Source: Candidatus Aminicenantes bacterium
GTDB lineage: Bacteria; Acidobacteriota; Aminicenantia; UBA2199
Direction of reading: 5' to 3'
DNA: 64,000 bases
Assembly (NCBI GenBank): GCA_030610885.1
Contig: JAUWQW010000002.1
Span: forward strand, 7,375 to 71,374
Part shown: in pieces, positions 6,377 through 51,980 of the stretch
Position numbering within the stretch: position 1 is the stretch's first letter
Layout: every line of letters begins with the position of its first letter
Translations under genes and position numbers: made by a program
Notes under the pieces: model-generated
What the model saw: only the letters and a program-made list of their open reading frames with translations
Told to the model about the DNA's origin: nothing
Databases searched by the model: none

Positions 6377-6382
6377 TTAATT

Positions 6383-12360: not shown

Positions 12361-12431
12361 ATTATATAAAAAAATATATTTAATTACGTAAATTTGTCCA
12401 TTTATTTAAGGTCTGATTTTGTATAAATAAG

Positions 12432-12460: not shown

Positions 12461-12494
12461 TAATTTTAATTAATATGTAGGAGGATATATTATT

Positions 12495-21949: not shown

Positions 21950-21959
21950 TTTTTTTGCC

Positions 21960-24655: not shown

Positions 24656-24720
24656 TTTCCCCTCCAGATTTATACTAAAAGCCTTAAATTAAAATGTCAA
24701 CAAATATTTAAAAAAAAATC

Positions 24721-24766
24721 AAAAAAATTAGTCTATTTTATTGACAATTAACTTCTAATGGATGAC
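24721..24766. repeat. 46-bp direct repeat copy A (AAAAAAATTAGTCTAT-N4-TTGACAATTAACTTCYAATGGATGAC), 42/46 identical to copy B at 30581-30626
   Basis: Direct visual alignment of the two copies; they bracket the 5.8-kb Avs-containing block. Confidence 0.8.
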
Positions 24767-27700: not shown

Positions 27701-29580
27701 TCTGCCGTACTTGTGTCCGCCGAAAAAGATGCTGTTCTGTTGCTGTAAGCAGATCAACTAAGCTCACGTCTTGATTTACAAATGCTCTTGCATAGATATG
27801 ATCAAAAAAGCTCTCGTGGAAAAAATTAACTTGACCACGAGACGAAATAATCAATCCTTCGGATGTCAAAATATCGACAGCGCCTAGAAAGGCATCCAAA
27901 ACCGAAACTGGAGCACTCAATTTTTGCCGCTCGCTCATCCAATTACACATGACTGTCAATGGCTGGACCAGTGACCAAGGCGGTTTTCGTTCTTTTGTTA
28001 TGGTGCGCTGTTTTTTCTCGATCAGTTTTTCGTGCAAATTTGATCGGGAATAAAATGAAAATTCCGAATCATCGATTTCCAGAAAAACTGCAAGATTAAT
28101 AGGTAAGCGAAGCAATTGGCGTTGTGGTTCATTTAACGAAGATGCATCAACGTCTTTATTTTTCAGAAGCGGCTCGATATCTGCTTTCCAATCAAGTAAG
28201 GGGACATCAATCGTTTTTGCTCGATTAGCCTCTTTCAGTCTCTTTAACCTCGGATCACTATCCAGATCAAATGTTCGGCACACAACGACAATTCTAACAC
28301 CTCCGAAATTGTGCGCATCGGTAATCAGCCGAAATATAACTTCTTTAACCTGTCCATCACGGCCCGATACCTCGCTGACAGCATCAACTTGATCAATAAA
28401 CAGAATGGAAGGTGTGGTTGGGAATGTCCCCTTCAGAGTGCTGACAGGGCCTTCTTCTCTGCCTGTCAGTTTCTTTCCGAGTTCCTCCCTTGTGCCGCAC
28501 GATAAATAGTGGTCAACTCTAAGTGCTAAATGAGGAACGTTGAGTTCACGGAGTTGCTCGATTACACCACGTACAATACCCGATTTTCCAGAACCAGCAA
28601 TACCCGTCAACAACACTAATTCTGGACCATCAGATTTGAGTATTTCATCGACAAGAGTGCCTGATTGACCCCTGGGAATCGTCTCTCCACCTGCGCCAAA
28701 AGGTGTATATGTTTGAAGATATGCTTCGGTTTCATCTTTCAACCGCTGTTGAATAGTAGGGTCAAACGCCCATTCCTTAAACTTCAGCACCCCTTGTAAT
28801 TTTATAGCATTTCGTGCAGATTCTGACGTAAGGGTTTTATTAAAATTATTTTCAAGGATATCTCGAAGATTAGGATAAGCAGCTTTCCCGCCACTTTGGA
28901 AGTATAGATCATCGTGAGATTCAATAAATAAGTCCAGGTCTATTTCAGAAATGATTCTAACATAGCTTCGTTTAAGCCAGTCGAATGCGACTTCATCGGG
29001 CTGCTGCCACTCATTTTTTAATTGCTGAAAGGAACCATTTTGATCCCCAGAAAGTATTTCCGCATATTGTTCATGTGAGTTTGAAATCCGCGCTTTTTCT
29101 GTAAGGGTTCTAAAATCTTTAGCATTGTCTTGAGAGACAAAATAGCAATATGCCTTCTTATCTGCCAATAACCGATTAGCAAATGCTTTTAATACTCCCT
29201 CTTTCTTAAGAGCATTTATTGTCCAGTTTCCTTTTGGAGCATTAACCTTGGTTTGATGCCACTCTGTAATTTCCCCACGAGCAATCGCAAATTCGAAACC
29301 TTGATATTCTGTTTCAACACCTTCGAAATTCAACCAATGTGCCTTGTCAGCAATTACATCCATTAGAGATCGGACCAGCCACTTCGCTTCGTATCGATTT
29401 CCGAGTTTATCTGCTATTCCACCTGGTATCATTTTAGGTCAGTCCAAATATTAGTTTTCATCCTAATGGGAAAAGACAATTTTATTTCACTCATATGCTC
29501 TTTATTGGACGACTGCATTTGCTGCCACAACAGAATACATAACGGTGGAAGTGAGAAAAAAAATAGAGTCATCCATTAGT
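24755..29580. mobile_element. compositionally foreign (visibly GC-richer) ~4.8-kb cassette bounded by a perfect 12-bp inverted repeat CTAATGGATGAC (24755-24766 and 29569-29580), carrying one gene (Avs-like STAND NTPase); no transposase/integrase inside
   Basis: Sharp base-composition shift coincident with the inverted-repeat ends; both terminal repeats read directly from the sequence. Confidence 0.5.
24849..29432 (-). CDS. antiviral STAND (Avs)-like NTPase: N-terminal Cap4/DUF4297-like PD-(D/E)xK nuclease domain, P-loop NTPase, long C-terminal helical-repeat sensor region
   Basis: 1527 aa. N-terminus GG...G.RYEAKW...D....EGVETE...EFAI..GEITEWHQTKV fits the D-E-QxK nuclease pattern. Walker A LLTGIAGSGKSG, Walker B-like SILFIDQVDAV, then ~1100 aa of helical repeats. 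Foreign GC content. Confidence 0.7.
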   Translation of the reverse strand: MIPGGIADKLGNRYEAKWLVRSLMDVIADKAHWLNFEGVETEYQGFEFAIARGEITEWHQTKVNAPKGNWTINALKKEGVLKAFANRLLADKKAYCYFVSQDNAKDFRTLTEKARISNSHEQYAEILSGDQNGSFQQLKNEWQQPDEVAFDWLKRSYVRIISEIDLDLFIESHDDLYFQSGGKAAYPNLRDILENNFNKTLTSESARNAIKLQGVLKFKEWAFDPTIQQRLKDETEAYLQTYTPFGAGGETIPRGQSGTLVDEILKSDGPELVLLTGIAGSGKSGIVRGVIEQLRELNVPHLALRVDHYLSCGTREELGKKLTGREEGPVSTLKGTFPTTPSILFIDQVDAVSEVSGRDGQVKEVIFRLITDAHNFGGVRIVVVCRTFDLDSDPRLKRLKEANRAKTIDVPLLDWKADIEPLLKNKDVDASSLNEPQRQLLRLPINLAVFLEIDDSEFSFYSRSNLHEKLIEKKQRTITKERKPPWSLVQPLTVMCNWMSERQKLSAPVSVLDAFLGAVDILTSEGLIISSRGQVNFFHESFFDHIYARAFVNQDVSLVDLLTATEQHLFRRTQVRQILEALRQNDFQRYLIELSSVLSSNDIRFHIKTAICQWLNSVEKPSEQEFEIISRFDEQSGKFHLLFRNAVLSTHAWFDLLNEKSWIPKQIDGDDKERAEMVLWWLSNIAGERPAEVASLLRSWWGSDTERAKRLLNWFGFVRRGKPDDDLLQLCEDVINSHPNDLFQDQGHRIMMLLHTWGKKSPERCGRILYSLFEAWFAFNPGCNPFEHDELKAIDTHSLAEIAKKTPQTFLLGTTDAIVRSIDMVIAEGETGGSWYNFNYRTYSGHRFGFDEFLGMYRTSLKKIAQEDPETATIYLEKLDPYKHECLMHLHLEIIQANPTVFGNRLSTLVTNEMVFGAGWDGADWLSFAHTCHVALPHLNSGEKKVVEQAILDHTPEIDLAIRLLREINQKGETEPFRTKKRVIRYLNLSGYKQWCILETIGEELLNSVTQSRLYGLRRKFPKEKIAEPNHMELHCVGSPIKRAQCDRMKDHHWLSVIKRYDNDEDRRRGRNFIDGGARELARELQEATKKDPIRFSDLSLKIPDTAHHSYTENILWGLAEAEAPSDISLTQAIKRAHQHPDKPFGSDIARLLERHPHVAGDSEILEILVWYALNGEANENEDSDEQNTERETIDINMLVQRGECFHIRGINARGRAWEALGSILWKVPKTEIRVWKAIEIALEKETLISVRCCMMKPLTPLFNMNKKRFSDSIRRLIILPDGTPHQYDATRLSPLITHTGIHLFPYIFYWLPELADELVTKLLKSGDETKELIGAWLVFCESFQNEAYIDKADNLTSVSIDHRRLLSAVTGDAINWAENRHRTEALLKEFFFDEDEQVRNKAANAFRNVQAKEVELYRELAAVFLKSPAFPDNGFSILHMLEDATCDVLDLVIEATQQVITDITEKGDQHRRLSTDVHQLQDLLKREYTSSESNAEARKKILDLIDLMLSHEIYGVDSIVTAHDRW

Positions 29581-30467: not shown

Positions 30468-30580
30468 CATAAAAAATAAATAATTAAGATATCTCTTTTT
30501 AAAACAAATGAGAACGGTTGAAATGTTTAAAAATATAACAGCAGCTAAAGTTGAATATTTTTTTAAAACCAGATAAAATA

Positions 30581-30626
30581 AAAAAAATTAGTCTATCTAC
30601 TTGACAATTAACTTCCAATGGATGAC
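30581..30626. repeat. 46-bp direct repeat copy B (partner of 24721-24766); also contains AATGGATGACTCT shared with the inverted right end of the Avs cassette
   Basis: Direct alignment: 4 mismatches in 46 bp versus copy A. Confidence 0.8.
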
Positions 30627-32408: not shown

Positions 32409-32487
32409 ATCTATTGACAATGAACAATAATTCTCCTAATATTTCATTAAGATGAAAAAAGGATTTTCCTATGGTGTCTTCCGTTGA
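32409..32487 (+). promoter_or_regulatory. conserved promoter-leader module copy C: TTGACA(32414-32419)-N17-TAATAT(32437-32442), leader, AAAAAAGGA RBS-like tract, ATG; short uORF MKKGFSYGVFR (32452-32487). ~90% identical over ~65 bp to copy D at 46948-47017
   Basis: Direct alignment of the two copies, which sit upstream of unrelated genes. Confidence 0.55.
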
Positions 32488-32593: not shown

Positions 32594-34015
32594 ATGATAT
32601 TTAAAAGGTTAAAGGAAGAATATGATTCCTACGAAAGTTTAAAACAGATCTGGGAAAAAAGGTCAACAATATTTATTTTAGAATTAATCTGGGTCATATT
32701 CATTTTATTTATATTTGTTGTAAAATATATTGATCTAAATTTCAAATCCATAAAGGGGATTATAACAAATTACATTGCGCTTCGAAATTTACTGGCAATT
32801 TATGTTTTAATAGCATTATTGATATTTGTGATATGGTATTTTAAGAGAAAAATCCCAAATATCCCTAAAGATAGAATTGGTATAATTTTTGCGATATCCA
32901 CAAAAAATCTAAGAAAAAAAAACATAATCAAAGAAGATTTTATCAGGAGAATGAAAACAGAGATTGCTTCTATTTCAACAGATAGATATGTTGTTGAAAT
33001 ACTTTCTGAATATCGATCATCTTTAATAATTGAGCCAGAAAATGAATCGGATGTATTAAAAGAGACAAACAAATATCTTAAAAGATCTAATGCTAAATTA
33101 TTAATTTTTGGAATTGCTCAAGAAAGGAATATGGCAGGGAAAGAGTATTACAATCTTATTTTAAATGCAGTCATCTCTCACCCAAATATTGACAAATCTA
33201 TAAGTGTACGGATCGGACATGATATGAGATTGGCATTACCAGAAGAAACTAGAATACCTATAGAAGACGAGTTAAGAGGCTTTGAAATTGTATCTTCACT
33301 ATATGGAATTTCGGCGAAGTTGTTTATTGGAATTGCAGATTATATTTCCCAAGATTATAGAAGGGCAATAAAAATTCATAAGTTGGTGCTAAATGAATCT
33401 GAAAACAAACCTGTAACCACTGAACTAGAAAAAACAGTACTTTTAAATATAAAAAATATTTCTAAAAAAGCTCTAATTGGCGAATGTATAGAACTTGTTA
33501 TTAGTCATTATAGAAGGACAGGTGATTATGAAGGTATGTCTGATGTATTGGACTTAGCGAAAGAAATTGACCCCAAAAATAAACCGATGGCGCTAAGCAG
33601 GGCCATTTATTATTTTCTAAATGGAAGAAATATCAAAAAGTCATTAAAAGAACTTGAAATTGCCAAAAACACAAAAGATTATACATGGGCTTATAGCATG
33701 GCATTCATAGAGGGATATGTAGGCAATTTAGATGAAGCATACAAATTATATCGAAGGGCATCTGAAAAGAAGTCAGTTCTGGATTCGTATATTCAATGTG
33801 AAGAATTTATATATAAAATCATTGAGGAGGAACCAGATAAAATCCAGTTATATTATTGCCTGGGACTGCTTATGTATATGTCAAGGGAAGACATGAAGCT
33901 TGCTAAAGAGAATTTTGAAAAATTTATAGAGCTAGCTGAAGAGAGAAAATTATTTAATGAACACGTAAATCATTCGAAAAATTATTTAAACAAAATAGAA
34001 TTAATAGGAAAATAA
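32594..34015 (+). CDS. membrane protein with two N-terminal TM helices, a cytoplasmic alpha/beta-like domain and a C-terminal TPR-like helical region; candidate partner/effector of the downstream TIR protein
   Basis: TM helices IFILELIWVIFILFIFVV and LLAIYVLIALLIFVIWYF. 27-bp gap to the TIR gene, same strand. Confidence 0.5.
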   Translation: MIFKRLKEEYDSYESLKQIWEKRSTIFILELIWVIFILFIFVVKYIDLNFKSIKGIITNYIALRNLLAIYVLIALLIFVIWYFKRKIPNIPKDRIGIIFAISTKNLRKKNIIKEDFIRRMKTEIASISTDRYVVEILSEYRSSLIIEPENESDVLKETNKYLKRSNAKLLIFGIAQERNMAGKEYYNLILNAVISHPNIDKSISVRIGHDMRLALPEETRIPIEDELRGFEIVSSLYGISAKLFIGIADYISQDYRRAIKIHKLVLNESENKPVTTELEKTVLLNIKNISKKALIGECIELVISHYRRTGDYEGMSDVLDLAKEIDPKNKPMALSRAIYYFLNGRNIKKSLKELEIAKNTKDYTWAYSMAFIEGYVGNLDEAYKLYRRASEKKSVLDSYIQCEEFIYKIIEEEPDKIQLYYCLGLLMYMSREDMKLAKENFEKFIELAEERKLFNEHVNHSKNYLNKIELIGK

Positions 34016-34042: not shown

Positions 34043-35032
34043 ATGAGCTATATGTCAGATAACTCTGAATCAATTATCTCTTTATTAAAAAAGAAATTAG
34101 ACCTTAAAGGATTAGACAAAGAATATCGTGTACTTGAAATTGGAAGAAGTGAAATTATAGAAGTAGAATACGACAGTTGGGGGCGGGGACAGTATTATAA
34201 TAATTTATATATTGAAATTCCGATTGAATTTTTTATTGAAATTGAGGTTGAAATTTCAAAAATTGAAGAACTTTTAAAAAAAGAACTGGAATCATTAAAC
34301 AGAGGTGATACAGGCGAGCATATCAGTTCAATCACAATAAATGCATCAAAAGAAACATCTCCTGCAGGAATTCCTTTATCAAAAATAAATAAAACTAATG
34401 GAGATTCTCTTTGGGAAAAAGGGAATTTTAGACTCTTTCTTAGTCATGTTTCAACTTCAAAGAAATTAGCACATGAATTAAAAGAAGATCTTCTTAAATA
34501 TGGGGTGTCAGCATTTGTAGCACATGATGATATAGAACCTACTTCTGAATGGCAACTAAAAATTGAGGAAGCACTTCAAAGTATGGAGGCACTTACTGCA
34601 ATAATAACCAAGGACTTTCAGAGTAGTTTTTGGTGCGATCAAGAGACTGGAATTGCAATAGGATTAAAAAAACTAGTTGTTCCTGTCCGTATGGGTGCGG
34701 ATCCACATGGATTCTTAGGAAAGTATCAGGGACTATCTGGTTTTGATAAAGAAGCTATCCAAATTTCAAAAGAAATCTTTACTGCATTGACCGGACATGA
34801 ATCTACAAGAATTAAAATGGCATTAGCGGTAATTCAACTTTTTGTTCATTCTGATTCATATTCCAATGCCATATTTAACATGAGTCTTCTTGAACAACTT
34901 CCTGTAATAACTCCAGATATGGCAGAGCAACTAAAAAAATCAGTTAATGAAAATTCACAAATAAATGGGGCTTTTGGTATTTCTGAACGTGTATCTCAAT
35001 TACTGAATAATAAGGGCTATAAAACTAGGTGA
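34043..35032 (+). CDS. TIR-domain protein (bacterial TIR_2-like, ThsB-like), with ~125-aa N-terminal and ~100-aa C-terminal extensions of unknown fold
   Basis: aa ~128-225: FRLFLSHVSTSKKLAHELKEDLLKYGVSAFVAHDDIEPTSEW...ALTAIITKDFQSSFWCDQETGIAIG...LVVPVR matches the TIR pattern (FISH/SY start, I.PG..W loop, S.WC..E with conserved Glu). Confidence 0.65.
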   Translation: MSYMSDNSESIISLLKKKLDLKGLDKEYRVLEIGRSEIIEVEYDSWGRGQYYNNLYIEIPIEFFIEIEVEISKIEELLKKELESLNRGDTGEHISSITINASKETSPAGIPLSKINKTNGDSLWEKGNFRLFLSHVSTSKKLAHELKEDLLKYGVSAFVAHDDIEPTSEWQLKIEEALQSMEALTAIITKDFQSSFWCDQETGIAIGLKKLVVPVRMGADPHGFLGKYQGLSGFDKEAIQISKEIFTALTGHESTRIKMALAVIQLFVHSDSYSNAIFNMSLLEQLPVITPDMAEQLKKSVNENSQINGAFGISERVSQLLNNKGYKTR

Positions 35033-41443: not shown

Positions 41444-41485
41444 AATAAAAAAGTAAACTATTGAATTATATTGTTAGGAGGTAAA

Positions 41486-44400
41486 ATGGGAATAAAAAAG
41501 ATTTTTAAAGATGGTGTAAATGAAATCAAAAGAAAAGCAGAATTTCATAGAGCAAGAAGGAATCTTAAGGAAAAAGAGAATATTAAAAAAGAAAAATTAA
41601 TACTTCTGGGTAAAAAGGCCTGGGAGTCAAAATTGGATTTAAAAAACTTTCCAGACCTTTATGAATTACTATCCAAGACTCAGAAAAACCAAGATGAGCT
41701 GGATGAAAAAGTGACTGGAATGAATCAACGAATGCAAGAGTATGAGAATAATAAAAAAGTTAAGAATTCAGATTTTGATAACCAAAGAAAAAGAATTGAA
41801 GAAAAGAAATCAAAGGTGGATTCAAAATTGAATGATGAGCAAAGTACTCTAAAAAATACCCAACTGGAAAAAGAAAAAGTTCAGAAAAGACAGAAACAAA
41901 TTGAAAAAGAAGAAGAAGAAGAACAATTAAGTACAAAGATGTCTGATGCTCAAGCGACCTTAGAGGAAAAAACCGAATTTGAAAAAAAGCAAACACAATT
42001 AATAAAGGAAAAGAAACAACTTTCTGAAAAAATTGAAAAATCTTCTGAAACAATAAAATTATTGGATGAAAAAATTAAACCACTGAAAGAACAATCAACC
42101 CAGTTTGAGAATGAAATCAATATTATCCGAGAAAATCAGAAAGAGGAAATTGGAGAGTTTGATACACTAATATCCGAAGAACAAAAAAAACTTGATGAAT
42201 GCAGGAAAAAACAGGAAGAAGTAAGCAAGCAGCAAAAACAGAATTTTTATCAATTGGGAATACAGCTTTCATCTGCCAGTACTGCAGATAAAATGGTTGC
42301 ATCTGAATTTTCAGAAATAAAGAACATAGAAAAAGAAATTGAATCTATTAAACAGGAAATTCAATCTCTGGAGAACCGGGCTTCTGAATCAAAAGGGGCA
42401 ATCTGGAAAATGGTTGGTCTGGCAGCAGCATTCCTGATTATGATTTTTGGAATTGTTTATACTGTTGGCGTTCTGTCAAAACAAAAAGTAACCAAACAAG
42501 ATACTGTTAAAGAGGACAGAATAACAGTTTCAGAGATAGATAAAAGTGAAAAAAAGGAGATTCCTGTTTCTGATAAAGGTTTAGAAGAAAGTGAAAAAAT
42601 TATGGAACCAAAGGAAGTAAACATACCTGTTGCTATCGGGGGGGCAGAGAATATGCTCTCCTCCCGCTCAAAATGGGAAGTGTGGGATAACATTAAGGAA
42701 AAGAAACATGAGGGGAAGTGGGAAATGAGATTAACTGAGATTTCAGGTGTATCCATAGGTGGAGAAAAAATTGCAACCATGCTTTTGGCCGGCGAAAAGG
42801 ATTGGAATAACTATCGGATAAATACCACAGCTCTAAGAATCGGAGTGGGTGGAGAGAAAGGATTTCTGGCTGGTCTCATCTTTGGTTATCTGGATTCCAA
42901 ACATTTTTATTTTTTAGGGTACAATTCCTCTGAGAATTGCTTTCAGATGAGTTGCAAGACCCCCGAAGGTTATCAGGTTCTGGAAACCTTCGAAGTAGAA
43001 TTCCCGCCAAATAAAGAGATCTCCCTTCAGCTTGACTTTGCAGACTCCCGGGTAATTTTTATGGCTAATGATGAAGTTATTATTGATAGGTATGATAGCC
43101 GTTTTTCAAAAGGAAAATTCGGACTTGGTGCTTCCAATATGAAAACAGATAAAATACTTTTTGATAAGCTAAGCGTTCAATCAATCAAACCAGAGGATTT
43201 GCCTGCAAAATCCTTTTTAGATTTACTATCTTCCAAGAGGGGAGCAAAGCTCATTTCACCGTCAAACGGAATTTTTAATACTCTTATTGACCATGAAACA
43301 AACTTAAAAAACAAAAAAATGAATCCCAAAGGCAGCTTTGTTATTAATCTAAAAAAAGATAAACTCCCTTCAGAGGCAGTTTATACATTTTTCAACAATA
43401 TGGAAGCAGAAGTGCACAAAGTAGGTGTCCAGCTGGGCAATTTTTTTTTCCCAAAAAATATTGAGTTCCTTATTTCAGAAAAGAGCGCAAAAAAGGGATT
43501 TAAATCCCTTGGCGTATTTAAAATAAAACCTGAAAAAAACGGCTACCAAGAATTTGCAATAGATCCGACAACTGGAAGATTCTTCAAGATTCGAATTCTA
43601 TCTGCAGGCCCATCTGGCATGGATTCTCAGATGGAAAAGAAATTTATAGAGAAAATGGGGAGGCAAATTCTGATTGCTGAAATCTTTGTTTATGGATATC
43701 AGAAAGTCAAACATAAACCATCTGTGGATACTTTAAATGTTGAAAATAAAAAGGACAGAAACAAAGATATCCATTTTATAGAAGATTTTTTATCAGGAAA
43801 CCTAAACAAATGGGAAGTATGGGTGGATCCAAAGGCAGATTCACCTAAAAGTGAATGGGGAGTGAATGTTTTAAGATTTTCTCCTGTATCATCCATGCTA
43901 ATCAATGGAGAAAAGGAATGGAAAAACTATTCCTTTAAGACAAATATATTCCCTCTTTCTCCAAGAAAGGGAAGAGATGTACATGATTATGGGATTGTAT
44001 TTGGCTACTTGGATCCAGAGCATTTTTATATTGTTTCCTACAATAAAAGATTGAAAAGGTTTGAGCTTAAAGCCAATTCACCCCAGGGATTTGAACTTCT
44101 TTCATTTGCAGAGATTAAGGGCCCAAAAGGAAAATTGGTGCCACTCCAGGTTGATTTTTTCTCAGGTCGAATAGCTTTTAAAGCCGATAATCAGACTATT
44201 TTTGACATTGATGAGAGTCGATATACATCGGGTAAAGCAGGTATCTTTACCTCTGGATCTACTCCCTATAAGCAGGGAAGAGGCGCTGTATTATTCAAGG
44301 ATTTTAAAATGATCCCTCTGAATTCAGAAACATATCCACAGAGGGATTTTCAGGATCTTTTATCTTTTAGAAGGGGAGCCAGTGTTATTTATAGGTCTGC

Positions 44401-46600
44401 TCCTCCTGCAGGGCACGAGATGCAGAGGTTGATCAATCATTCATTAACAGAAGGAGACTATAAAGAAAGTGCATATATCCTGAGATTATCAGAAACCAAA
44501 CTTCCCGAAGAAGCAGTATTCTGCTTTCCTCAAGGAAGATTTGCTGAAATTCATAAGATAGGATTTAAACTTGCGGGTGATTATTTTCCAAAAGAGATTA
44601 AATTTTTTACTTCCAACGAAACTCCCAAAACGGGGTTTAAACCCCTCACAACCATAACTCTTGAACCAAAAGCAAACAGCTACCAAGAATTCGAAACCCC
44701 TCAAAAAATTGCCAAGTACTTAAAAATTCAGATCACTGAAGGATACAATGCCAAGAAGATTTTTGTCCCGGAGATTTATGTAAAGGGTCATTTCAAAGAG
44801 CTTTCTCGTTTAAGGGAGACCAAAGAAATGTATAAGAAAACAGGGATTCGAGAAATTGAACCCAATAATTCCATAAAAGAAGCCCAAAAACTTCCCCTGA
44901 ATATTTATCTGACTGGAGATGTTTCTCAGAAGGATGATGATTATTATTTTGTCTCTCTGTCAAATAAAAATGAAAAAGATGTGGTTTTGGTAGTTACCAT
45001 CAAAAGAATAGGGATGATTAAACCAGGATTTACTCTGGAAACAGGTAAAGGAACCGCTATTTCTCCATCAAATATCCAGAGTGAAGGTGATACAATTACA
45101 TATTTTTATGATGTAAAACCAGATGATTATTTTCTGAAACTGGTTCAGCCTGAGACTTACCTGACCATAGTTTATGATGATAGTGGAAGTATGAAAGAGA
45201 GCGTTCCAGTTGTTAAACGGGTTTTGAAAGGTTATCTGGATAGTCTAAAAGAGGGGATATTCCTCAAATTGATAAAATACACAAATAAGGTTTTTAATCT
45301 ATCTGATTTTACCAGTGAGCCGGCGCTCTTAAAAAAGGCTGTTGAAAGTGAAGTTCTAGGCAGAGGTAATACAGATACTTTCAAAGGTTTGATGGCTGCC
45401 ATTGAAAGCATCAAGATAAAAGACGGAAATCGTGCAATTATCGCAATTCTGGATGAGCTGGTTTGTCAAACCCGTGAATGCAAGCAACAGTATATCGAGC
45501 TATGGGATGCTATTCTGGATACAGGGATAGTCTTTTCCACAATTGGTGTTCAGTCTGGATGGCACGGAAAAACACGATATTTTGGAAACACCAACTATCA
45601 AATATTCAGTGAGTTTGCCTATGCAACAGGAGGAGAGTTTTATCATTCTCCATCGGATGAGTTAATTAAAAAGAGTGTAGACAGAATTTTTAAACAGATG
45701 ACATCCCCTGTCCAGTATCTGGTAAAAGCAGCAATTGAGGAGAAAAAGGAGGAGGTTAAGAAAGAACCGAAAGTGAAAAAACCAGGGTCTATTCAGGTGC
45801 TATTTGAAAAAGGGGCAGAGAAAGAGATAGAGAAAAATATTGAATTGATTCTGGATGCGTCTAATTCAATGTGGGGACAGATTCAGGGTCGTAGTAAAAT
45901 CGAAATTGCGCGCGAGGTTCTGATAAAGCTGGTGCGCGGACTGCCCGATAAAATAAATGTTGGTTTGAGGGTCTATGGACACAGATATAAACTGAAAGAC
46001 AGACGGGCCTGTAAGGACTCAGAACTTATTGTTCAGATTGGAAAACTGAATAAAGATAAAATGATCCAGATAGTTAATCGAATAATCCCGAGAGGAAAAA
46101 CTCCATTGGTTCATTCAATCCTTCAAACACCCGGTGATTTTGAAAACATTGGCAAAGGGACAGTAATTCTAATTAGTGATGGAATTGAGAGCTGCAATGG
46201 GGATATCAATTCTGTGGCATCGATTCTTAAAAAATCAGGACTCGATTTAAAGGTTCATATTGTTGGTTTTGATATCAAGGGGCGGCAGGCTCGGAAGCAG
46301 TTGGAGATGATAGCTGAATCCACTGGCGGACGATACCTTGATGCAAAAAATTCAAAGGAACTGCTTTCATCACTGGAAAAAACTCTCCAGTTTGAATATC
46401 GTCTACTGAATGATAAAGGAAAGATTGTGGTAAAAGGTTATGTTGGGGAAAAGGAGATTGAGGTAATGGAAGGAAGTTATACACTTCGCCTGATGGTTGA
46501 TCCAGTCTTTTTGGAGAAGACCGTCGTTATTAGCCCTGAATCAAAACAGAGTTTTATTTTAAAAAGAGAGAATAATAAATGGATTGTCAATAAAGAGTAA
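41486..46600 (+). CDS. large single-pass membrane protein: N-terminal coiled coil, TM helix, two tandem LamG/DUF1080-like beta-sandwich modules, two vWA domains (start refined to ATG 41486 after AGGAGGT RBS)
   Basis: N-terminus MGIKKIFKDGVNEIKR paralogous to MGFKQIFKDGFGEFKR of the upstream gene. TM MVGLAAAFLIMIFGIVYTVGV. Internal repeats WEVWDN...GYLDSKHFYFLGYN / WEVWVD...GYLDPEHFYIVSYN. MIDAS motifs VYDDSGSM and LDASNSM. Confidence 0.65.
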   Translation: MGIKKIFKDGVNEIKRKAEFHRARRNLKEKENIKKEKLILLGKKAWESKLDLKNFPDLYELLSKTQKNQDELDEKVTGMNQRMQEYENNKKVKNSDFDNQRKRIEEKKSKVDSKLNDEQSTLKNTQLEKEKVQKRQKQIEKEEEEEQLSTKMSDAQATLEEKTEFEKKQTQLIKEKKQLSEKIEKSSETIKLLDEKIKPLKEQSTQFENEINIIRENQKEEIGEFDTLISEEQKKLDECRKKQEEVSKQQKQNFYQLGIQLSSASTADKMVASEFSEIKNIEKEIESIKQEIQSLENRASESKGAIWKMVGLAAAFLIMIFGIVYTVGVLSKQKVTKQDTVKEDRITVSEIDKSEKKEIPVSDKGLEESEKIMEPKEVNIPVAIGGAENMLSSRSKWEVWDNIKEKKHEGKWEMRLTEISGVSIGGEKIATMLLAGEKDWNNYRINTTALRIGVGGEKGFLAGLIFGYLDSKHFYFLGYNSSENCFQMSCKTPEGYQVLETFEVEFPPNKEISLQLDFADSRVIFMANDEVIIDRYDSRFSKGKFGLGASNMKTDKILFDKLSVQSIKPEDLPAKSFLDLLSSKRGAKLISPSNGIFNTLIDHETNLKNKKMNPKGSFVINLKKDKLPSEAVYTFFNNMEAEVHKVGVQLGNFFFPKNIEFLISEKSAKKGFKSLGVFKIKPEKNGYQEFAIDPTTGRFFKIRILSAGPSGMDSQMEKKFIEKMGRQILIAEIFVYGYQKVKHKPSVDTLNVENKKDRNKDIHFIEDFLSGNLNKWEVWVDPKADSPKSEWGVNVLRFSPVSSMLINGEKEWKNYSFKTNIFPLSPRKGRDVHDYGIVFGYLDPEHFYIVSYNKRLKRFELKANSPQGFELLSFAEIKGPKGKLVPLQVDFFSGRIAFKADNQTIFDIDESRYTSGKAGIFTSGSTPYKQGRGAVLFKDFKMIPLNSETYPQRDFQDLLSFRRGASVIYRSAPPAGHEMQRLINHSLTEGDYKESAYILRLSETKLPEEAVFCFPQGRFAEIHKIGFKLAGDYFPKEIKFFTSNETPKTGFKPLTTITLEPKANSYQEFETPQKIAKYLKIQITEGYNAKKIFVPEIYVKGHFKELSRLRETKEMYKKTGIREIEPNNSIKEAQKLPLNIYLTGDVSQKDDDYYFVSLSNKNEKDVVLVVTIKRIGMIKPGFTLETGKGTAISPSNIQSEGDTITYFYDVKPDDYFLKLVQPETYLTIVYDDSGSMKESVPVVKRVLKGYLDSLKEGIFLKLIKYTNKVFNLSDFTSEPALLKKAVESEVLGRGNTDTFKGLMAAIESIKIKDGNRAIIAILDELVCQTRECKQQYIELWDAILDTGIVFSTIGVQSGWHGKTRYFGNTNYQIFSEFAYATGGEFYHSPSDELIKKSVDRIFKQMTSPVQYLVKAAIEEKKEEVKKEPKVKKPGSIQVLFEKGAEKEIEKNIELILDASNSMWGQIQGRSKIEIAREVLIKLVRGLPDKINVGLRVYGHRYKLKDRRACKDSELIVQIGKLNKDKMIQIVNRIIPRGKTPLVHSILQTPGDFENIGKGTVILISDGIESCNGDINSVASILKKSGLDLKVHIVGFDIKGRQARKQLEMIAESTGGRYLDAKNSKELLSSLEKTLQFEYRLLNDKGKIVVKGYVGEKEIEVMEGSYTLRLMVDPVFLEKTVVISPESKQSFILKRENNKWIVNKE

Positions 46601-46636
46601 ATGGGTGGATGTGGAAGAAACTTTCAGCAAAATAGT

Positions 46637-46690
46637 TTTGAGTTGATGGGTAGATGTGTAAATGGGTAGATGGGTGGATGACAAGTGAAA
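46637..46690. repeat. direct repeat copy 1 of a GGGTAGATG-rich ~45-bp element (AGTTGATGGGTAGATG...GGTAGATGGGTGGATGA); partner at 47908-47960
   Basis: Direct alignment. The copies flank the HEAT-lipoprotein cassette. An 11-bp inverted repeat ATGTGGAAGAA (46608-46618 / 46754-46764) brackets the low-complexity tract. Confidence 0.6.
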
Positions 46691-46947
46691 AGGCAAAAGT
46701 AAAAAGTAGGGTCTGGGATTTGGGGGTTGGGATTTGGTGAAAAAGCTGAATGCTTCTTCCACATGAACTTGCACTTGAACATGAACTTAGACTTAAACTT
46801 AAACTGATAAAGGAAATACCATTTAACCAATCAACAATTAGTTCATTCAACTATTTAAACAAGTGTTTAGTTTTGAGTTAAAAAAAACGATACTAAAAAC
46901 TATCTATTCATAAAGATTTGTACAAAATTTTTAATGATCCAATTCGG

Positions 46948-47046
46948 TCTATTGACAATTAACAATAATTTCACTAATATTTCATTGAGATGAAAAAAGG
47001 AATTTCCTATGTTGTTATTTTTAAACAAAATATAACATTCAAATGA
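46948..47046 (+). promoter_or_regulatory. conserved promoter-leader module copy D: TTGACA(46952-46957)-N17-TAATAT(46975-46980); uORF MKKGISYVVIFKQNITFK (46990-47046) ending 8 nt before the main ATG
   Basis: ~90% identity to copy C (32409-32478) including the uORF start MKKG(F/I)SY. Confidence 0.55.
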
Positions 47047-47054
47047 GATTATAA

Positions 47055-47816
47055 ATGAAAAAACGACTGATTCTTTTTTGCGTATTTCTTTTTTTTATTT
47101 CTGCGTGTGGAGTCGATGAAGATGAAATTAACGAACTCGCCGAAGAATGTGCTGCAGGTGATCATGATGCCTGTTCAGAACTAGCCGACATTGCAAGGAG
47201 CGATAAAGATTGTAAAGTACGCTGCGTTGCAGGCGAGAAATTGACTGATCAAAAGATTATAGCCGGCATTGCAATGAGCGATAAAGATTGGGGAGTAAGC
47301 TTCGTTGCAGTCGAGAAATTGACCGACGAGGCTGCGTTAGCAAGTATCGCTCTTGAGGGTAATTTTCATAACAGTGCTGCCCTTAAAAAGCTGGCGGATC
47401 CAGCCGCACTTGCTAAAGTTGCTGTGGATGATAAAAACTGGAGAGTCCGCCTGATTCGTAAGTTTATAGCCGCGTTTGATTCCGTGCCAACTGAGCACAG
47501 AGAACGTCTCATGTTGGCCGTTTTTCCGGCTATTCGTACATTAAGCTATCCAGCAGTTTCTTCTAAAGTCGGAGATATAGTTTCAATCAAAACAAACTGG
47601 GATGGCACGAGCCAATATTACACCGGGGTTTTTATAGGACATAAGCCCGGCGAAATGTTCACATTTTCGATTAAAGTTCGAAAACTGACTGAACCTCTGT
47701 CGCATACATGGGGCACAAACTTTCCATTCAAAACCTCAAGTTTGTCATTTTTGCCTGCTGACATTAATGCCTCTGATCTCTATCAAAAAGCATTCGATAA
47801 GCTGACCGACAAATAG
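47055..47816 (+). CDS. HEAT-repeat (PBS-lyase-like) lipoprotein, visibly GC-richer than flanks
   Basis: Lipobox FFISAC|G. Repeated D(K/D)DxxVRxxAxEKLTD / DKNWRVR units typical of HEAT-like repeats. Confidence 0.55.
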   Translation: MKKRLILFCVFLFFISACGVDEDEINELAEECAAGDHDACSELADIARSDKDCKVRCVAGEKLTDQKIIAGIAMSDKDWGVSFVAVEKLTDEAALASIALEGNFHNSAALKKLADPAALAKVAVDDKNWRVRLIRKFIAAFDSVPTEHRERLMLAVFPAIRTLSYPAVSSKVGDIVSIKTNWDGTSQYYTGVFIGHKPGEMFTFSIKVRKLTEPLSHTWGTNFPFKTSSLSFLPADINASDLYQKAFDKLTDK

Positions 47817-47907
47817 ATTCTCACCGACATCACAAGGAACGATAAATGTGAAAAGGGGTCAGGTCTCAACATTAGACATTCAATGTAAAAGGCAATATTA
47901 GTTCTAA

Positions 47908-47960
47908 GTTTTAAGTTGATGAGTAGATGGGTAGATGGGTGGATGAGTAAAGAGTGAATT
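47908..47960. repeat. direct repeat copy 2 of the GGGTAGATG-rich element (AGTTGATGAGTAGATGGGTAGATGGGTGGATGA)
   Basis: Direct alignment with 46637-46690. Confidence 0.6.
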
Positions 47961-48191
47961 GAAGAGAAGTTAAATAGTTAATTAGAGTAATAGTTAAATG
48001 GTAAAAAACAATTAGATATTCTTGGGGTCATGGCTTTCATTTTAGTACTGCACTCAAAATGCATGTGAATTTACATTCTATAGAAAGGATATGTTTTCTG
48101 TAAAATTTACAAAAGTTTATTGACATTAGAAATTTTTTGTATCAATATAATATTATATATAAAAGTATAAAAGGGAGTTAAATTAATTAAA

Positions 48192-48824
48192 ATGGATGAA
48201 GAATATAATGATAAGAATGTTGAAAAAAATTTTGATCTTGACTTGACTAGAATCTGGCGATTAGCAAAAGGCAATAATGTTAGTTGTTGGTTACTTTCAA
48301 CTAGGGAATTATTAAGTGCAACTAATTTATTGGATATTAATATAAAAAAATTAAGTGATAATTATCCTATTTTGTTTGATGATAAAAGTAATTATCCAAA
48401 ATCCTTATTTGCTATTGAACCTAATAGAATGTTAAAGGGAATGGTTGTTGAAGCAGTATTTAAGGCTTTATGGTTAGACAAAGGAAATGAAATACTTGTT
48501 GAGGAAGAAAAAAACGGCAATAAAAAATTGGTTTATAAGAAAATACCAGGTGTAAATGATCATGATTTATTAAGCTATTTAAACATATTAGATTTATCAT
48601 TTAATGTGGAAGAAAAAAATTATTTAATTATTCTATCCGATCATATTGTTGCTGATGGAAGATATCCAATTCATAAAAAAGAAAAAGAAACAACATTATC
48701 TAGTAATTATATTAAAGATGAATATAATTACTTAAAAAATATCTTCGTCAAAATACTTAATAAATTTAAAAAAGATGATCCAGAGGTTATTTCAGAAATA
48801 GATAAAATCATTAAATTGCTATAA
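48192..48824 (+). CDS. hypothetical protein (possibly the orphaned target-recognition portion of a degraded DNA methyltransferase)
   Basis: 210 aa with no recognisable motif. Lies immediately upstream of the MTase C-terminal relic. Confidence 0.35.
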   Translation: MDEEYNDKNVEKNFDLDLTRIWRLAKGNNVSCWLLSTRELLSATNLLDINIKKLSDNYPILFDDKSNYPKSLFAIEPNRMLKGMVVEAVFKALWLDKGNEILVEEEKNGNKKLVYKKIPGVNDHDLLSYLNILDLSFNVEEKNYLIILSDHIVADGRYPIHKKEKETTLSSNYIKDEYNYLKNIFVKILNKFKKDDPEVISEIDKIIKLL

Positions 48825-49009: not shown

Positions 49010-50320
49010 TTAATATGTTTTTATCAGAAATAAAATTATTCCTTCTACCATATAAAAAAGACTTTCTAAGTGTTTTTCATCAAAATATTCAAGAGAGTGC
49101 TTAGGGTTATTTAACAATTTATGAATTTCGCTAACATTTCTACAGAAAAATTCGATAATTTTTTTATCCGATCTTCTTGAGTTTAATATATATTCAATTC
49201 TTTGACTTCTTGTAATCTTATCTTTTTCTTCAATGTTAAAATGTGCTTTCACTACATTATCAGGAGCAAGCTTCCGAGGGGTCCAATCCAAAAATTCTAT
49301 CATTGAAGTAGCACTTTGACGACATTTATCTGGATTATCTGAATACAAAGTCTCCCAAGCTCCTTCTCGCATTCTATCCAAATTTGGATCTATTGAAATT
49401 AATATCTTTTTCAACTTCCTATTTTTAACAGCTTCATTAGAAAAATCTATTTCAAAGTCTTTTATTTCAGGATGTTCTTTTCCTATTGGATATGGAATTG
49501 AATAAGATAAATTTTTATAAATTAAAGAAGAAGCTTCCAATTTAAAAAAATTTTTATCTATTATCAAAAGTTCCTTTTCTTTCATAATTTTTTGAATTCT
49601 CTCAAAAGAATAATCCTGAAAATATTTAGTAGTATTTAATACACTACTCATCAAAGGTTTTATGTCAGTCTTAAATATACTATTGAGAGATAAAGAATTC
49701 AAAGACGAAATTTTTGAGGATATCAACTGAGATGCTTGCAGGTTTTTGCTAAATAATGAAAAAGTTTCACTGAGCTTTTTTGTTGAACCTAAGAAAGAAT
49801 CATGTGTAGACTTTATCTTCCTTGTAATTTCGGCCATCGAAGAAAATTTAGACATCGGCTCTAATGCCATTTTCATTTCTTCTTTCATTTTAATAATAGG
49901 TTCTGATGTTATTCTCATGGTTTTAGCAATTTCTCCATAAGAAGGCCCTAATGCTCTTCTCATTACATCCATTTCTTTTATATGAGATTTATTCATTTCT
50001 CTTATCATTCTTTCTATTCCTGAATGATAAGGATATAATCTTTTTCGATCCTGCATTAGATTTTCCCCTAAAGAAATTGCAAAATTGCCTGTCATTTTTG
50101 ATAAATCTAATGCTTTTATCTCCTCTTTATATTTAGATGTTAAAAAATATCCTGCATCATTCTTTCTTACTAAATTTTCCTTTATCAACAATTTTATTGA
50201 ACGGTTGATAGATGAAGGGCTTTTATTTAAAGAATCAGCTATTCCCTTTTGAGTTCTAACTTTATTTCTTTCTAAAATATTAAGAATTCCTTTTTGAAGC
50301 TTTGATCTTCTTTTATTCAT
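49010..50320 (-). CDS. winged-HTH protein with C-terminal HEPN-like Rx5H motif (Abi-like candidate); start refined to ATG 50320 (MNKRRSKLQ) after GAGGT RBS
   Basis: N-terminal MarR/ArsR-like wHTH GILNILERNKVRTQKGIADSLNKSPSSINRSIKLLIKENLV. C-terminal CRNVSEIHK (R-x5-H). Confidence 0.45.
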   Translation of the reverse strand: MNKRRSKLQKGILNILERNKVRTQKGIADSLNKSPSSINRSIKLLIKENLVRKNDAGYFLTSKYKEEIKALDLSKMTGNFAISLGENLMQDRKRLYPYHSGIERMIREMNKSHIKEMDVMRRALGPSYGEIAKTMRITSEPIIKMKEEMKMALEPMSKFSSMAEITRKIKSTHDSFLGSTKKLSETFSLFSKNLQASQLISSKISSLNSLSLNSIFKTDIKPLMSSVLNTTKYFQDYSFERIQKIMKEKELLIIDKNFFKLEASSLIYKNLSYSIPYPIGKEHPEIKDFEIDFSNEAVKNRKLKKILISIDPNLDRMREGAWETLYSDNPDKCRQSATSMIEFLDWTPRKLAPDNVVKAHFNIEEKDKITRSQRIEYILNSRRSDKKIIEFFCRNVSEIHKLLNNPKHSLEYFDEKHLESLFYMVEGIILFLIKTY

Positions 50321-50620
50321 AATAACCTCATAAATTGATTTTAAGATTAACATTAAATCACAAATTACGGTTATTGTCAATACTATTGTGAATTAAAAGC
50401 GTAGTAAAATTTAAGAGCTTAAAGTGAACTTGGTGCTAGGCCTATATCTTTGACAATTAAAAAATAAAATTTATTATAAAAAACATTGCAAAAAACAAAA
50501 CCTGATCCCAAAATTTACATTTTAGTATGATTTCGTGTAGATTTTTTAATGAGGCAACGATACCTGTTTCATATAGATTTTTAATGATTCAACCCAAATA
50601 ATCAAGTAAGGCCATTTATG

Positions 50621-50683
50621 GGTGAGCAGGGTGACAGCAGGGTGACGGTGCATGACGGTGACAGCAGGGTGACGGTGCATGAC
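50621..50683. repeat. GC-rich 27-bp tandem repeat (GGTGACAGCAGGGTGACGGTGCATGAC x2 plus a partial unit)
   Basis: Units at 50630-50656 and 50657-50683; partial GGTGAGCAG at 50621-50629. Confidence 0.8.
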
Positions 50684-50726
50684 AATTTGACATTTTTGTT
50701 ATAAAAGATATTTATGCGTAAAAAAT

Positions 50727-50993
50727 AAAAGGGACGGTCTTTTGAAGTATTGATTTTCTTTCATTGTTTCTTTCTTCTCTTTGTATGAAAATACAAACTC
50801 CCTAAAGAACCAAAAGACAAATCGCTAAATAAATCAAATTCTATGACCTCCCCATATGTCAATCCACTTAAATCTTTTAATAATACCAAAAATTCTCCTC
50901 TCAGCCTTTTGCCTTCATGTGTAATGGTGTTTATATCTTCTAACTTTATTCCATACTTCTGTTCAAATTCAAATATTATTTTCTCAACAGGCT
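50727..50993. repeat. older partial tandem copy (~95% identity, ~263 bp) of the left inverted repeat plus the 3' end of the HUH transposase element
   Basis: 50731-50993 aligns with 51005-51267 at a constant offset of 274 bp, with a few substitutions and small indels. Confidence 0.75.
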
Positions 50994-51002
50994 CATAAAT
51001 AT

Positions 51003-51980
51003 AAGGGACGGTCTTTTGAAGTATTGATTTTTCTCACCGTTTCTTTCTTCTCTTTGTATGAAAATACAAACTCCCTAAAGAACCAAAAGACAAATCGCTA
51101 AATAAATCAAATTCTATGACCTCCCTATATGTCAATCCACCTAAATCTTTTAATAATACTAAAAATTCTCCTCTCATCCTCTTGCCTTCATGTGTAATGG
51201 TGTCTATATCTTCAAACTTTATTCCATACTTCTGTTGAAACTCAAATATTATTTTCTCAACAGGCTCAAAGTAGCGATCATCAGTCCGCTTGTTCTCTCT
51301 CACTGATCTCTCTTTCCTTCGATCATACTTCTTTTCTGCTTCCTTTATAAACTCTTCATCACCAAATATTTGCCCATACTTTGATCGTTTAACTACATAC
51401 TTCTGCTTATGAGCACTTTGTAAGGACATAAAAAAATTTTCTTTTATGCCAAAAAGATCTTCAACAAAATTCTTATCAATAAAACTCTTATTGTCTCCTG
51501 AGAAATATAATGATCCGCTTGACCAAGAATAGTTATCAAATCTATCCACAAGGTTTGCTCTTACTGGATTTTGAATAACATATACTATAGCCTGGACCAG
51601 ATATGGCTCATTCTGAATCAATGTTGATTTAAACCGATCCTGGAACACATACCCCTTTCCTCCTATAACCCTCCTGTAGTAAAATCCATACTGGCTATTC
51701 AGATTTCTCATAAACTCAGAGAGCCTACCACTACTATTTTGCAATAATAAATGGTAATGGTTGTCCATAATACAGTATGCCAATATGCGCATTCTGTAAA
51801 TCACTGACTTTTCAGCAAGTAATTCAATATATTTTGATTTCAGTTCTGCACTTGAGAATATTTTCTCTTCATTGACTCCCCTGTTCATAATATGGTGAAA
51901 AGCACCTTCCCATGTTAGTCGTGCATGTCTCATACTATAATTATAATATAATATTTCAATACTTCAAAAGACCGTCCCTT
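51003..51980 (-). mobile_element. small HUH-transposase element (IS200/RAYT-like) bounded by perfect 25-bp inverted repeats AAGGGACGGTCTTTTGAAGTATTGA (51003-51027 / 51956-51980)
   Basis: Inverted repeats read directly; a single HUH transposase ORF lies between them. Confidence 0.65.
51034..51933 (-). CDS. HUH Y1 transposase (IS200/IS605 TnpA / REP-associated tyrosine transposase-like) with C-terminal extension
   Basis: HUH motif in CIMDNHYHLLLQ; N-terminal ~140 aa fits the Y1 transposase fold pattern; 299 aa. Confidence 0.65.
   Translation of the reverse strand: MRHARLTWEGAFHHIMNRGVNEEKIFSSAELKSKYIELLAEKSVIYRMRILAYCIMDNHYHLLLQNSSGRLSEFMRNLNSQYGFYYRRVIGGKGYVFQDRFKSTLIQNEPYLVQAIVYVIQNPVRANLVDRFDNYSWSSGSLYFSGDNKSFIDKNFVEDLFGIKENFFMSLQSAHKQKYVVKRSKYGQIFGDEEFIKEAEKKYDRRKERSVRENKRTDDRYFEPVEKIIFEFQQKYGIKFEDIDTITHEGKRMRGEFLVLLKDLGGLTYREVIEFDLFSDLSFGSLGSLYFHTKRRKKR

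Follow-up and report, generated by a model that had tools for sequence, protein, structure and literature searches.

A GC-rich, 3′-truncated lipoprotein gene between tandem-repeat blocks in a Candidatus Aminicenantes genome

RESULTS

Layout of the lipoprotein gene locus

We analyzed a stretch of 64,000 nt of a Candidatus Aminicenantes genome (GenBank assembly GCA_030610885.1, contig JAUWQW010000002.1, positions 7,375 to 71,374, forward strand; this whole stretch is called the window), and focused on a lipoprotein gene (47055–47816) and the two direct repeats on either side of it, which an earlier note had read as the borders of a 1.27-kb insertion of foreign DNA. The region is bounded by a 1709-aa VWA-domain gene (41471–46600) and an open reading frame (ORF) of 210 aa (48192–48824). 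The two direct repeats do exist, as copies of about 42 nt with tandem 8-mers (46634–46683 and 47907–47948), and 47055–47816 is the sole ORF above noise between them (253 aa). The left intergenic region (46601–47054) is a series of short tandem-repeat blocks, designated A to F below (TRF, Tandem Repeats Finder). In what follows, L numbers denote the metagenome or genome contigs or loci that we compared, and P numbers denote homologous proteins.

46597–46612 (+): octamer mini-cluster, a pair of octamers (GTAAATGG GTGGATGT) that overlaps the TAA stop codon of the VWA gene (1709 aa)
46609–46628 / 46745–46764 (+): 20-nt arms of an inverted repeat, 90% complementary, enclosing blocks A–D
46634–46683 (+): left direct repeat, blocks A and B; A is AGTTTTGAGTT, B is five tandem 8-mers of the GTAGATGG type
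46634–46681 (+): blocks A and B, AGTTTTGAGTT and then tandem 8-mers
46683–46708 (+): block C, AAAAGK repeats (TRF)
46709–46737 (+): block D, GGGATTTGG repeats, with GGGTCTGGGATTTGG twice, rich in G-runs
46761–46805 (+): block E, GAACTT/AAACTT hexamers of period 6 (TRF)
46815–46858 (+): block F, CCATTTAAC/CAATCAAC 8-mers
47907–48006 (+): right direct repeat, with block A (47908–47917), block B (47915–47946) and degenerate 8-mers (47947–48006)

The direct repeats were 86% identical over 42 nt (46634–46675 versus 47907–47948; 32 nt, 91%, E = 1.6e-4 by BLAST), and each was composed of AGTTTTRAGTT followed by four to five tandem 8-mers of the GTAGATGG type (TRF period 8). Their motifs were confined to this locus within the 64-kb window (6 matches versus 0.23 expected, and 4 versus 0.06), and such counts were reached in 0 of 100 shuffles. 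The left copy was homologous to L125 223–293 (92%) and to L108 12450–12500(-), and the right copy lies in a stretch almost without C (2.4% C), whose degenerate 8-mers at 47947–48006 are the inverse of block F. Among the remaining features, the alternating hexamer tract that the earlier note had pointed out corresponds to block E, and the inverted repeat that it had given as 11 bp is real and longer, with arms of 20 nt; these arms were present singly in L205 and L125, and their pairing was not conserved. The octamer mini-cluster at the VWA stop codon was kept in L205 and diverged in L204.

Composition, domains and truncation of the lipoprotein gene

47055–47816 (+): 3′-truncated lipoprotein gene with a signal peptide and lipobox, degenerate HEAT-like repeats and a conserved alpha+beta domain
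47817–47852 (+): in-frame remnant of the next HEAT-like repeat past the TAG stop, ILTDITRNDKCE (tblastn and codon comparison)

We computed the GC content of the gene (43.2%) and that of its third codon positions (GC3, 37.4%), and compared these values with those of the housekeeping ORFs of the window (glyQS, gcvPT and others), which ranged from 27 to 32% and from 17 to 24%, respectively; the window mean is about 29% GC. The gene had the highest or second-highest GC content in the window, with only a 1527-aa AAA gene (24849–29432) being comparable. This check, third codon positions included, confirmed that the gene is GC-richer than its flanks, and the gene is compositionally foreign. The protein had 24 homologs among 5.8 billion proteins, and none of them was a conserved neighbour. 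A native gene, whose high GC content would stem from its amino-acid and repeat composition, might be suggested by the richness of the protein in Ala, Asp, Lys and Val repeats and by the presence of homologs in Acidobacteriota, the wider phylum. However, the GC3 value of 37% versus about 20%, the scarcity of homologs just described, the truncation of the gene and its absence behind the VWA gene in L204 (see below) all argue against this explanation, and we consider it extremely unlikely.

The earlier note had called the product a lipoprotein, and by inspection both a signal peptide and a lipobox were present (FFISAC; MKKRLILFCVFLFFISAC-G, with ISAC at residues 16–19). The window protein conforms to the pattern [LVI][ASTVI][GAS]C, and the counterpart in P0002 is FVSAC. 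The close full-length homologs were 340–440 aa long, a signal peptide was found in several of them and a lipobox as well in P0002, and their layout comprised HEAT-like repeats (D.D..VR..AV.KLTDQ.LLA.IA), a conserved central domain of ~130 aa and a second HEAT-like block. For HEAT-like repeats in the window protein, the evidence was mixed: the protein itself gave no Pfam HEAT match, even at E ≤ 10, whereas the gathering scores of the HEAT and PBS-lyase HEAT-like families (PF02985 and PF13646) were passed by P0002 (HEAT 36.9 bits, HEAT_2 38.0), P0003 (HEAT 41.3, HEAT_2 35.9) and, for HEAT, P0007 (29.0), and an AlphaFold (AF2) model (mean predicted local distance difference test score, pLDDT, 77) showed a helical-hairpin solenoid at residues 22–140 (pLDDT about 90) followed by an alpha+beta domain. 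A Foldseek search against the PDB returned nothing below E 0.2, the top weak match being the CpcE/F phycocyanin lyase, and NCBIfam and PADLOC gave no match for the lipoprotein. Recorded proteins exactly matching the lipoprotein or the products of ORFs 48192–48824 and 49010–50380 were also sought, and none was found.

The ORF ends in ...FDKLTDK, precisely where the second repeat block should begin. In tblastn searches, P0002–P0005 read through the TAG stop into ILTDITRNDKCE, after which homology ended; the C-terminal ~170–190 aa, and with them the second repeat block, are absent from the window protein, and at the N-terminal end it has one repeat fewer than P0002. Since the TAG is aligned with TCG in L002, a single-base nonsense change at this position is plausible. 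With homology continuing past the TAG and no C-terminal repeat block left, the gene is a remnant of a larger HEAT-repeat lipoprotein of higher-GC Acidobacteriota, and not an intact cassette gene. The full-length homolog P0002 is encoded on the 46%-GC contig L002, whose LepA was closest to Acidobacteriota sequences. On that contig, the gene for P0002 belongs to a series of lipoprotein genes that code for HEAT-like repeats (6287–13502), three spacers of about 210 nt each are near-identical, and the 5′ untranslated and signal-peptide region is 68–74% identical to window 47001–47097.

A segment shared with a second context

46995–47917 (+): segment 98.7% identical (911/923) to metagenome contig L001 by DNA comparison, with differing flanks

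P0001, a protein 98% identical to the window lipoprotein, is encoded on the 2015-bp metagenome contig L001, and the comparison of the two DNAs shows that the lipoprotein gene occurs in at least two contexts. The left end of the shared segment lies within the promoter core described below, and its right end lies at block A, at the start of the octamers of the right repeat. Upstream, L001 has a clustered regularly interspaced short palindromic repeats (CRISPR) array (repeat CTTTGAACTCTACCTATAAGGAATTGAAAC), together with a TTGACA promoter other than that of the window; downstream, it carries block A, an A-run, an F-type block and octamers (GTGAATGGGTGGATGAGTGGATGGGTAG), and then unrelated sequence. 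The CRISPR array occupies L001 1–660, with at least nine copies of its 30-nt repeat, the last of them degenerate, and ends ~290 nt upstream of the truncated gene; this repeat was not present in the window. The two copies of the segment differed at 12 positions, 7 of them coding, and 5 of these 7 were non-synonymous. At C57 and G60 of the first HEAT-like repeat, where L001 has R and V, the window copy departs from the consensus VR..AV.KLTD.

Because the identity with L001 starts in the promoter and ends at block A, the shared unit is not delimited by the direct repeats. This observation bears on the possibility that the locus holds a discrete 1.27-kb cassette, captured behind a portable promoter, with the direct repeats of ~45 bp serving as att (attachment) sites or representing a target duplication. 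The repeats are real and non-random, the composition of the gene is foreign, the gene occurs in a second context in L001 and is missing behind the VWA gene in L204, and both contexts have an octamer block after the gene, all of which would fit such a cassette. However, the shared segment starts at 46995, ~360 nt inside the left repeat, and stops where the right octamers begin; L001 lacks an octamer block upstream of the lipoprotein gene; the same blocks are also found in L108 and L125, where the genes ahead of them are unrelated; the repeats consist of imperfect tandem 8-mers like those seen in many taxa; and the segment contains neither an integrase or transposase nor an attC-like hairpin. 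We therefore regard a discrete cassette as very unlikely, and the claim that the direct repeats border an inserted unit does not hold.

A promoter module ahead of unrelated genes

46862–47016 (+): promoter module, long form, beginning with block A at 46870
46948–47016 (+): promoter core, with –35 TTGACA at 46952, a 17-nt spacer and –10 TAATAT ending at 46980, then TTCATTGAGATGAAAAAAGGAATTTCCTATGTTGT
32410–32477 (+): second promoter-core copy ahead of ORF 32594–34015, 90% identical to 46948–47015

The earlier note had placed a copy of a promoter module ahead of the lipoprotein gene, and the second copy of 46948–47015 listed above bears this out. The core contains TTGACA-17-TAATAT (a predicted promoter match of 10/12), a small TTCAT..ATGAA hairpin, AAGGA and ATG, and its homology to other copies ends a few bases past the ATG. 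The long form was 84–86% identical to L108 and L125 over 138–149 nt. We searched for the core with the pattern TATTGACAAT-N5-ATAATT-N4-TAATATTTCA...GGAATTTCCTATG and found it in 8 stretches of GTDB genomes with unrelated sequences downstream, 6 of which came from three Ca. Aminicenantes metagenome-assembled genomes (MAGs); a scan of viral contigs yielded 0 matches. In all, the ~70-nt core was ~90% conserved before unrelated genes (the window, L108 and L125–L132) in several Ca. Aminicenantes MAGs of 31–46% GC. Two bins, labelled as Desulfobacteraceae and as Anaerolineales and perhaps mis-binned, also contained it. The short ORFs inside the module (MKKGISY... and MLLFLNKI) were considered as genes and rejected, as they were not conserved outside it.

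A second promoter-like repeat pair was observed at 24715–24766 and 30575–30626 (52 nt, 90%; AAAAAAATTAGTCTAT..TTGACAATTAACTTC.AATGGATGAC). It flanks the 43%-GC gene of the 1527-aa AAA-ATPase, which has a weak PADLOC match to PDC-M54A, and this gene is another GC-odd segment between repeated promoter elements.

Related modules at other loci

We searched for the repeat blocks elsewhere, as the earlier note had proposed, and found them behind unrelated genes, together with a wide occurrence of the octamer array alone. A degenerate pattern of three octamers matched at least 120 metagenome stretches of 28–70% GC, many of them clearly unrelated and some microsatellite-like, and the bare octamer array is therefore generic simple sequence; repeats occurring as widespread simple sequence were what the earlier note itself had named as speaking against an independent insertion. 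In six unrelated and often high-GC stretches (L030, L035, L038, L054, L058 and L083), (GTRGATGR)n arrays were directly followed by their own reverse complement and would give long near-perfect hairpins, a different use of the same simple repeat. Among the matches listed, the non-octamer modules were absent from the 120 other octamer-bearing loci, and they were found only in low-GC Aminicenantes-like loci. An A-rich 18-mer from block C matched 71 stretches of viral contigs, which were taken as chance A-rich matches without individual inspection, and a pattern scan with the C-terminus of the VWA protein gave 599 matches, among which no relative was confirmed. The repertoire of modules is as follows.

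Block A: AGTTTTRAGTT
Block B: tandem 8-mers of the GTAGATGG type
Block C: AAAAGK
Block D: GGGATTTGG or GGTTAGAGG repeats
Block E: AAACTT hexamers
Block F: CAATCAAC-type 8-mers
Other modules: several unique pieces of 25–60 nt, and a promoter-bearing module of roughly 70–150 nt

Six loci with mosaics of these modules were compared (the window, L001, L108, L125, L204 and L205), and all of the module sites, including two or three in the window and two in L125, were intergenic. In L108, blocks A-B-C-D-E-F lie behind a glycosyltransferase operon and the long promoter module (84%, 149 nt) lies ahead of it; the coding DNA of this operon was 67% identical to window 20976–22298, compared with 84–95% for the modules. 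Blocks C/D of the window resembled L125 326–366 and 5021–5082 (88–89%), and blocks E/F resembled L108 12236–12330(-) and L204 2231–2308. In L125, which belongs to Ca. Aminicenantes MAG CSMAG_2431, 10 nt separate the end of a nuclease-like gene from blocks A-B-C-D, a partial mosaic also lies between divergent genes, and the promoter module precedes a gene with a proline iminopeptidase-like sequence. A perfect tandem repeat of two 27-bp units (GGTGACAGCAGGGTGACGGTGCATGAC) was noted at 50630–50683 of the window, and related GGGTGACGGTGCATG pieces, another module of the same repertoire, occur in spacers of L001 (802–831), L125 (about 1822) and L205.

Two of these loci carry close relatives of the VWA gene, and both part from the window within 7–30 nt of its stop codon.

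L204: 95% nucleotide identity over 44483–46607, diverging a few bases from the VWA stop into other modules (GTTGAAA, GGTTAGAGG, AAGATTAAG, E and F)
L205: 92% over 45752–46630, diverging into other module combinations past the VWA stop

Within 630 nt of the VWA stop, L204 has another promoter and ORF start and no lipoprotein gene; the comparison with relatives that the earlier note had suggested thus showed the gene to be absent behind a VWA gene of 95% nucleotide identity. The contig of L205 ends in a 62-nt module that in L001 is located upstream of the lipoprotein segment. When the six loci were compared all against all, they shared pieces of 22–131 nt at 87–100% identity in varying order, and a network of this kind is the hallmark of an interspersed-repeat repertoire with mosaic structure, located in a spacer prone to recombination. 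Each of the two direct repeats represents the A+B blocks of one such mosaic, the first behind the VWA gene and the second behind the lipoprotein gene; as judged from these comparisons, they appear to be members of a dispersed mosaic repeat family and not insertion scars, since copies of a dispersed intergenic family surround a broken gene.

We also considered an assembly artefact, that is, a chimeric join of two strains or loci through the 923-bp segment or the dispersed modules. Several related contigs end within modules (L205 and L129), one segment has two sets of flanks, and the source is apparently uncultured, as a chimera would predict. However, module copies inside the window share only ~90% identity and span no more than 70 nt, too little in both length and similarity for a normal assembly to collapse them; L001 was obtained from another sample record, with 12 positions differing from the window; and the composition shifts at gene boundaries, not at repeat junctions. 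An artefact is accordingly rated as highly improbable.

Strand skew, folding and a possible role at transcript ends

The left mosaic is divided into two halves of opposite skew. Over 46601–46752, G amounts to 37% and C to 4.6%, with blocks C and D (46683–46752) ending this G-rich, C-poor half, and blocks E and F (46753–46862) make up the C-rich, G-poor half (C 21%, G 8%). This two-part strand skew was common to four loci (G 26–37% and C 5–9%, then C 21–33% and G 8–11%). In the window (46601–46862), L108, L125 and L204, it begins directly behind stop codons, with the G-rich, nearly C-free half first and the C-rich, G-poor half second. The left mosaic folded no better than shuffled sequences (z = –0.58), and for the right copy (47817–48020) every shuffle folded better (z = +2.28); on these values, we rejected both a structured RNA and an attC-like element. 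No hairpin or terminator-like site, and hence no intrinsic terminator, was predicted in a terminator scan of 46300–48400. An Rfam scan of the whole window at gathering scores gave only a tRNA (9977–10048), and a scan of 46400–48300 at E ≤ 1 gave no match. For block D, a G-quadruplex was considered and set aside; the motif with four G-runs is present in the window and not conserved in L125 or L108.

A Rho-type termination zone is typically a C-rich, G-poor, unstructured stretch behind a gene. All five A+B blocks seen lie 10–220 nt downstream of the end of a gene and are co-oriented with it, and the mosaics usually start shortly past a stop codon. As a weak suggestion, they may separate transcription units, serving as 3′-end or Rho-type termination zones or as insulators; a neutral or parasitic nature is equally possible. 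A rival explanation is that the mosaics are functional cis-elements selected as 3′-end or insulator elements (Rho zones or protein-binding arrays), one per transcription unit, in which case their duplication would carry no information on gene movement. Such selection would agree with the position of the five of five A+B blocks, the conserved two-part skew with little structure, the lack of predicted intrinsic terminators at the locus, and the 84–95% identity of the modules of the window and L108 versus 67% for the neighbouring coding DNA. However, the partial mosaic of L125 lies between divergent gene starts, the blocks are wholly different behind the same gene in close relatives, which speaks against a precise sequence requirement, and the independent cases number only four. 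We thus view selected cis-elements as possible, at a tentative level. Given that one partial mosaic sits between divergent genes and that blocks are freely exchanged downstream of a single gene, any function of the mosaics would be loose.

Tests for mobile elements and the surrounding island

A Pfam scan of 43 ORFs of the window, each 120 aa or longer, detected no integrase. With regard to an integron, no attC-type hairpin was found at the 3′ end of the ORF, where the repeat is a C-free array of tandem 8-mers, and no intI was found among the same 43 ORFs, the sole recombinase-like gene being a Y1 gene (IS200/RAYT-like, 51034–51933). No target-site duplication of an insertion sequence, miniature inverted-repeat transposable element or transposon was found. 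The only flanking inverted repeat (46822–46858 / 47970–48006) is low-complexity and 76% complementary, the corresponding block has the opposite orientation in L001, and the limits of homology with L001 (46995 and 47917) match neither flanking repeat pair. The octamer and hexamer blocks are neither palindromic nor structured and do not resemble repetitive extragenic palindromic (REP) elements in this respect. The modules do share the properties of bacterial interspersed mosaic elements (BIMEs) and BOX elements: they are non-coding, multi-copy, intergenic and lineage-restricted (six loci), and their sub-modules vary in order and copy number, even between the window, L204 and L205, where they follow the same VWA gene.

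The Y1 transposase ORF (51034–51933(-); Pfam Y1_Tnp, 6.7e-9) is similar to REP-associated tyrosine transposases (RAYTs), with an NCBIfam score of 66.9 bits, under the 80-bit cut-off. A REP-like motif, GGTCTTTTGAAGTATTGA, flanks this gene, inverted REP-like GGGACGGTCTTTTGAAGTATTGA copies lie on either side of it, and the same REP-like motif occurs in L108 near 14535–14560. A 273-bp tandem duplication (50723–51268, 95%) repeats the 3′ end of the ORF. The surrounding island (24849–50380) contains defence-like genes, namely those for a TIR-domain protein (34043–35032), the large AAA ATPase and a winged helix-turn-helix and pPIWI-associated-nuclease-like protein (49010–50380), in addition to a PAS / transglutaminase-like / VWA gene block of 35–36% GC.

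DISCUSSION

Considering these results together, we think it probable that the locus holds a compositionally foreign, decaying gene fragment, which recombination between dispersed modules of the intergenic DNA has shuffled. As a part of a variable genome region, the locus is fairly ordinary. Of the earlier reading of an independent foreign insertion, the foreign composition of the gene, its variability and the promoter in front of it were upheld, while a repeat-bounded insertion and an intact cassette were not. In the mechanism that we propose, the host is a low-GC (about 29%) member of Candidatus Aminicenantes, in whose lineage some intergenic regions would be assembled from the shared repertoire of short modules, in varying orders and copy numbers. 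A gene remnant, marked by a nonsense codon, the loss of the C-terminal repeat block and non-consensus substitutions, would have been placed among them by homologous or illegitimate recombination between dispersed modules, presumably with breakpoints in the promoter core on the left and in block A on the right. A dedicated mobile element would not be involved, and the tandem blocks would expand and contract by slippage.

Several observations weigh against this interpretation. Coding differences between the window and L001 were rarer than those in the flanking non-coding part (7/762 versus 5/161, Fisher P = 0.04), which hints that the truncated gene is still under some constraint. The mosaic is documented in only six loci, two of which share one cassette. 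Within the window, the modules occur only around the lipoprotein gene and at 50620–50683; they thus occupy only some of the intergenic regions and may be tied to variable or island DNA. In addition, in the two contexts known for the cassette, the gene is followed by an A+B block, so that the octamer block may travel with the gene, which would fit a cassette-like unit better than pure coincidence.

A related proposal is that block A, the octamer arrays and the promoter core act as recombination joints through which genes or gene fragments are swapped between loci without an integrase. Among the loci concerned would be defence islands and the DNA beside a CRISPR array, and each swapped unit would bring with it a promoter at one end and an end-of-transcript element at the other. 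We consider this proposal unlikely.

The closest analogues of the mosaics are BIMEs/REP, pneumococcal BOX elements and the short tandemly repeated repetitive (STRR) sequences of cyanobacteria. BIMEs/REP of enterobacteria are short, non-coding, multi-copy intergenic mosaics, often located at gene ends, whose sub-motifs vary in order and number. The mosaics described here are likewise intergenic, multi-copy and built of sub-motifs, and a RAYT-like gene with inverted REP-like flanks lies 3 kb away. However, the blocks are tandem 6–8-mers with an extreme strand skew and not palindromic REP hairpins, and no link of the RAYT-like gene to the octamer blocks was shown. BOX elements of Streptococcus pneumoniae (boxA-boxB(n)-boxC) are lineage-restricted, with variable internal units and modules of 45–60 nt with extensive secondary structure, are transcribed along with the genes next to them, and are considered probable parasites that can nevertheless influence expression (Croucher et al. 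2011, PMC3049150). Our mosaics are similarly modular, interspersed, lineage-restricted and variable in the number of internal units, whereas their modules are shorter, unstructured and made of simple tandem repeats. STRR sequences of filamentous cyanobacteria are described (PMC2670836) as usually 7-bp repeats of unknown function with reported hairpin formation. The arrays found here resemble them as intergenic tandem arrays of a 6–8-nt unit that recur at many loci of one lineage, but they belong to another phylum, have other unit sequences, lack hairpins and concatenate several unit types.

The lipoprotein locus also resembles an integron cassette in that a single short ORF has an external promoter before it and a repeat after it and is found in more than one context. 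It differs from such a cassette in the lack of an attC palindrome and of intI among the scanned ORFs, in the tandem 8-mers, in the truncation of the ORF and in that the shared segment takes in part of the promoter element. Re-used or "mobile" promoters are known in prokaryotes. The ~70-nt core (TTGACA-17-TAATAT and about 35 nt), which is ~90% kept before unrelated genes in several MAGs, is reminiscent of them, although no transposon ends were visible around it. A literature search for such repeats in Aminicenantes found no relevant description.

These findings document a mosaic family of simple-sequence intergenic repeats and a re-used promoter core in uncultured Candidatus Aminicenantes. For annotation, they imply that, in this lineage, short direct repeats flanking a gene of odd GC content are not to be taken for insertion scars. 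The mosaic elements are likely to break or confuse metagenome assemblies, and they may flag hot spots of variable-gene exchange. If they do act as termination or insulator elements, they would provide a handle on transcription-unit boundaries in a phylum without a genetic system.

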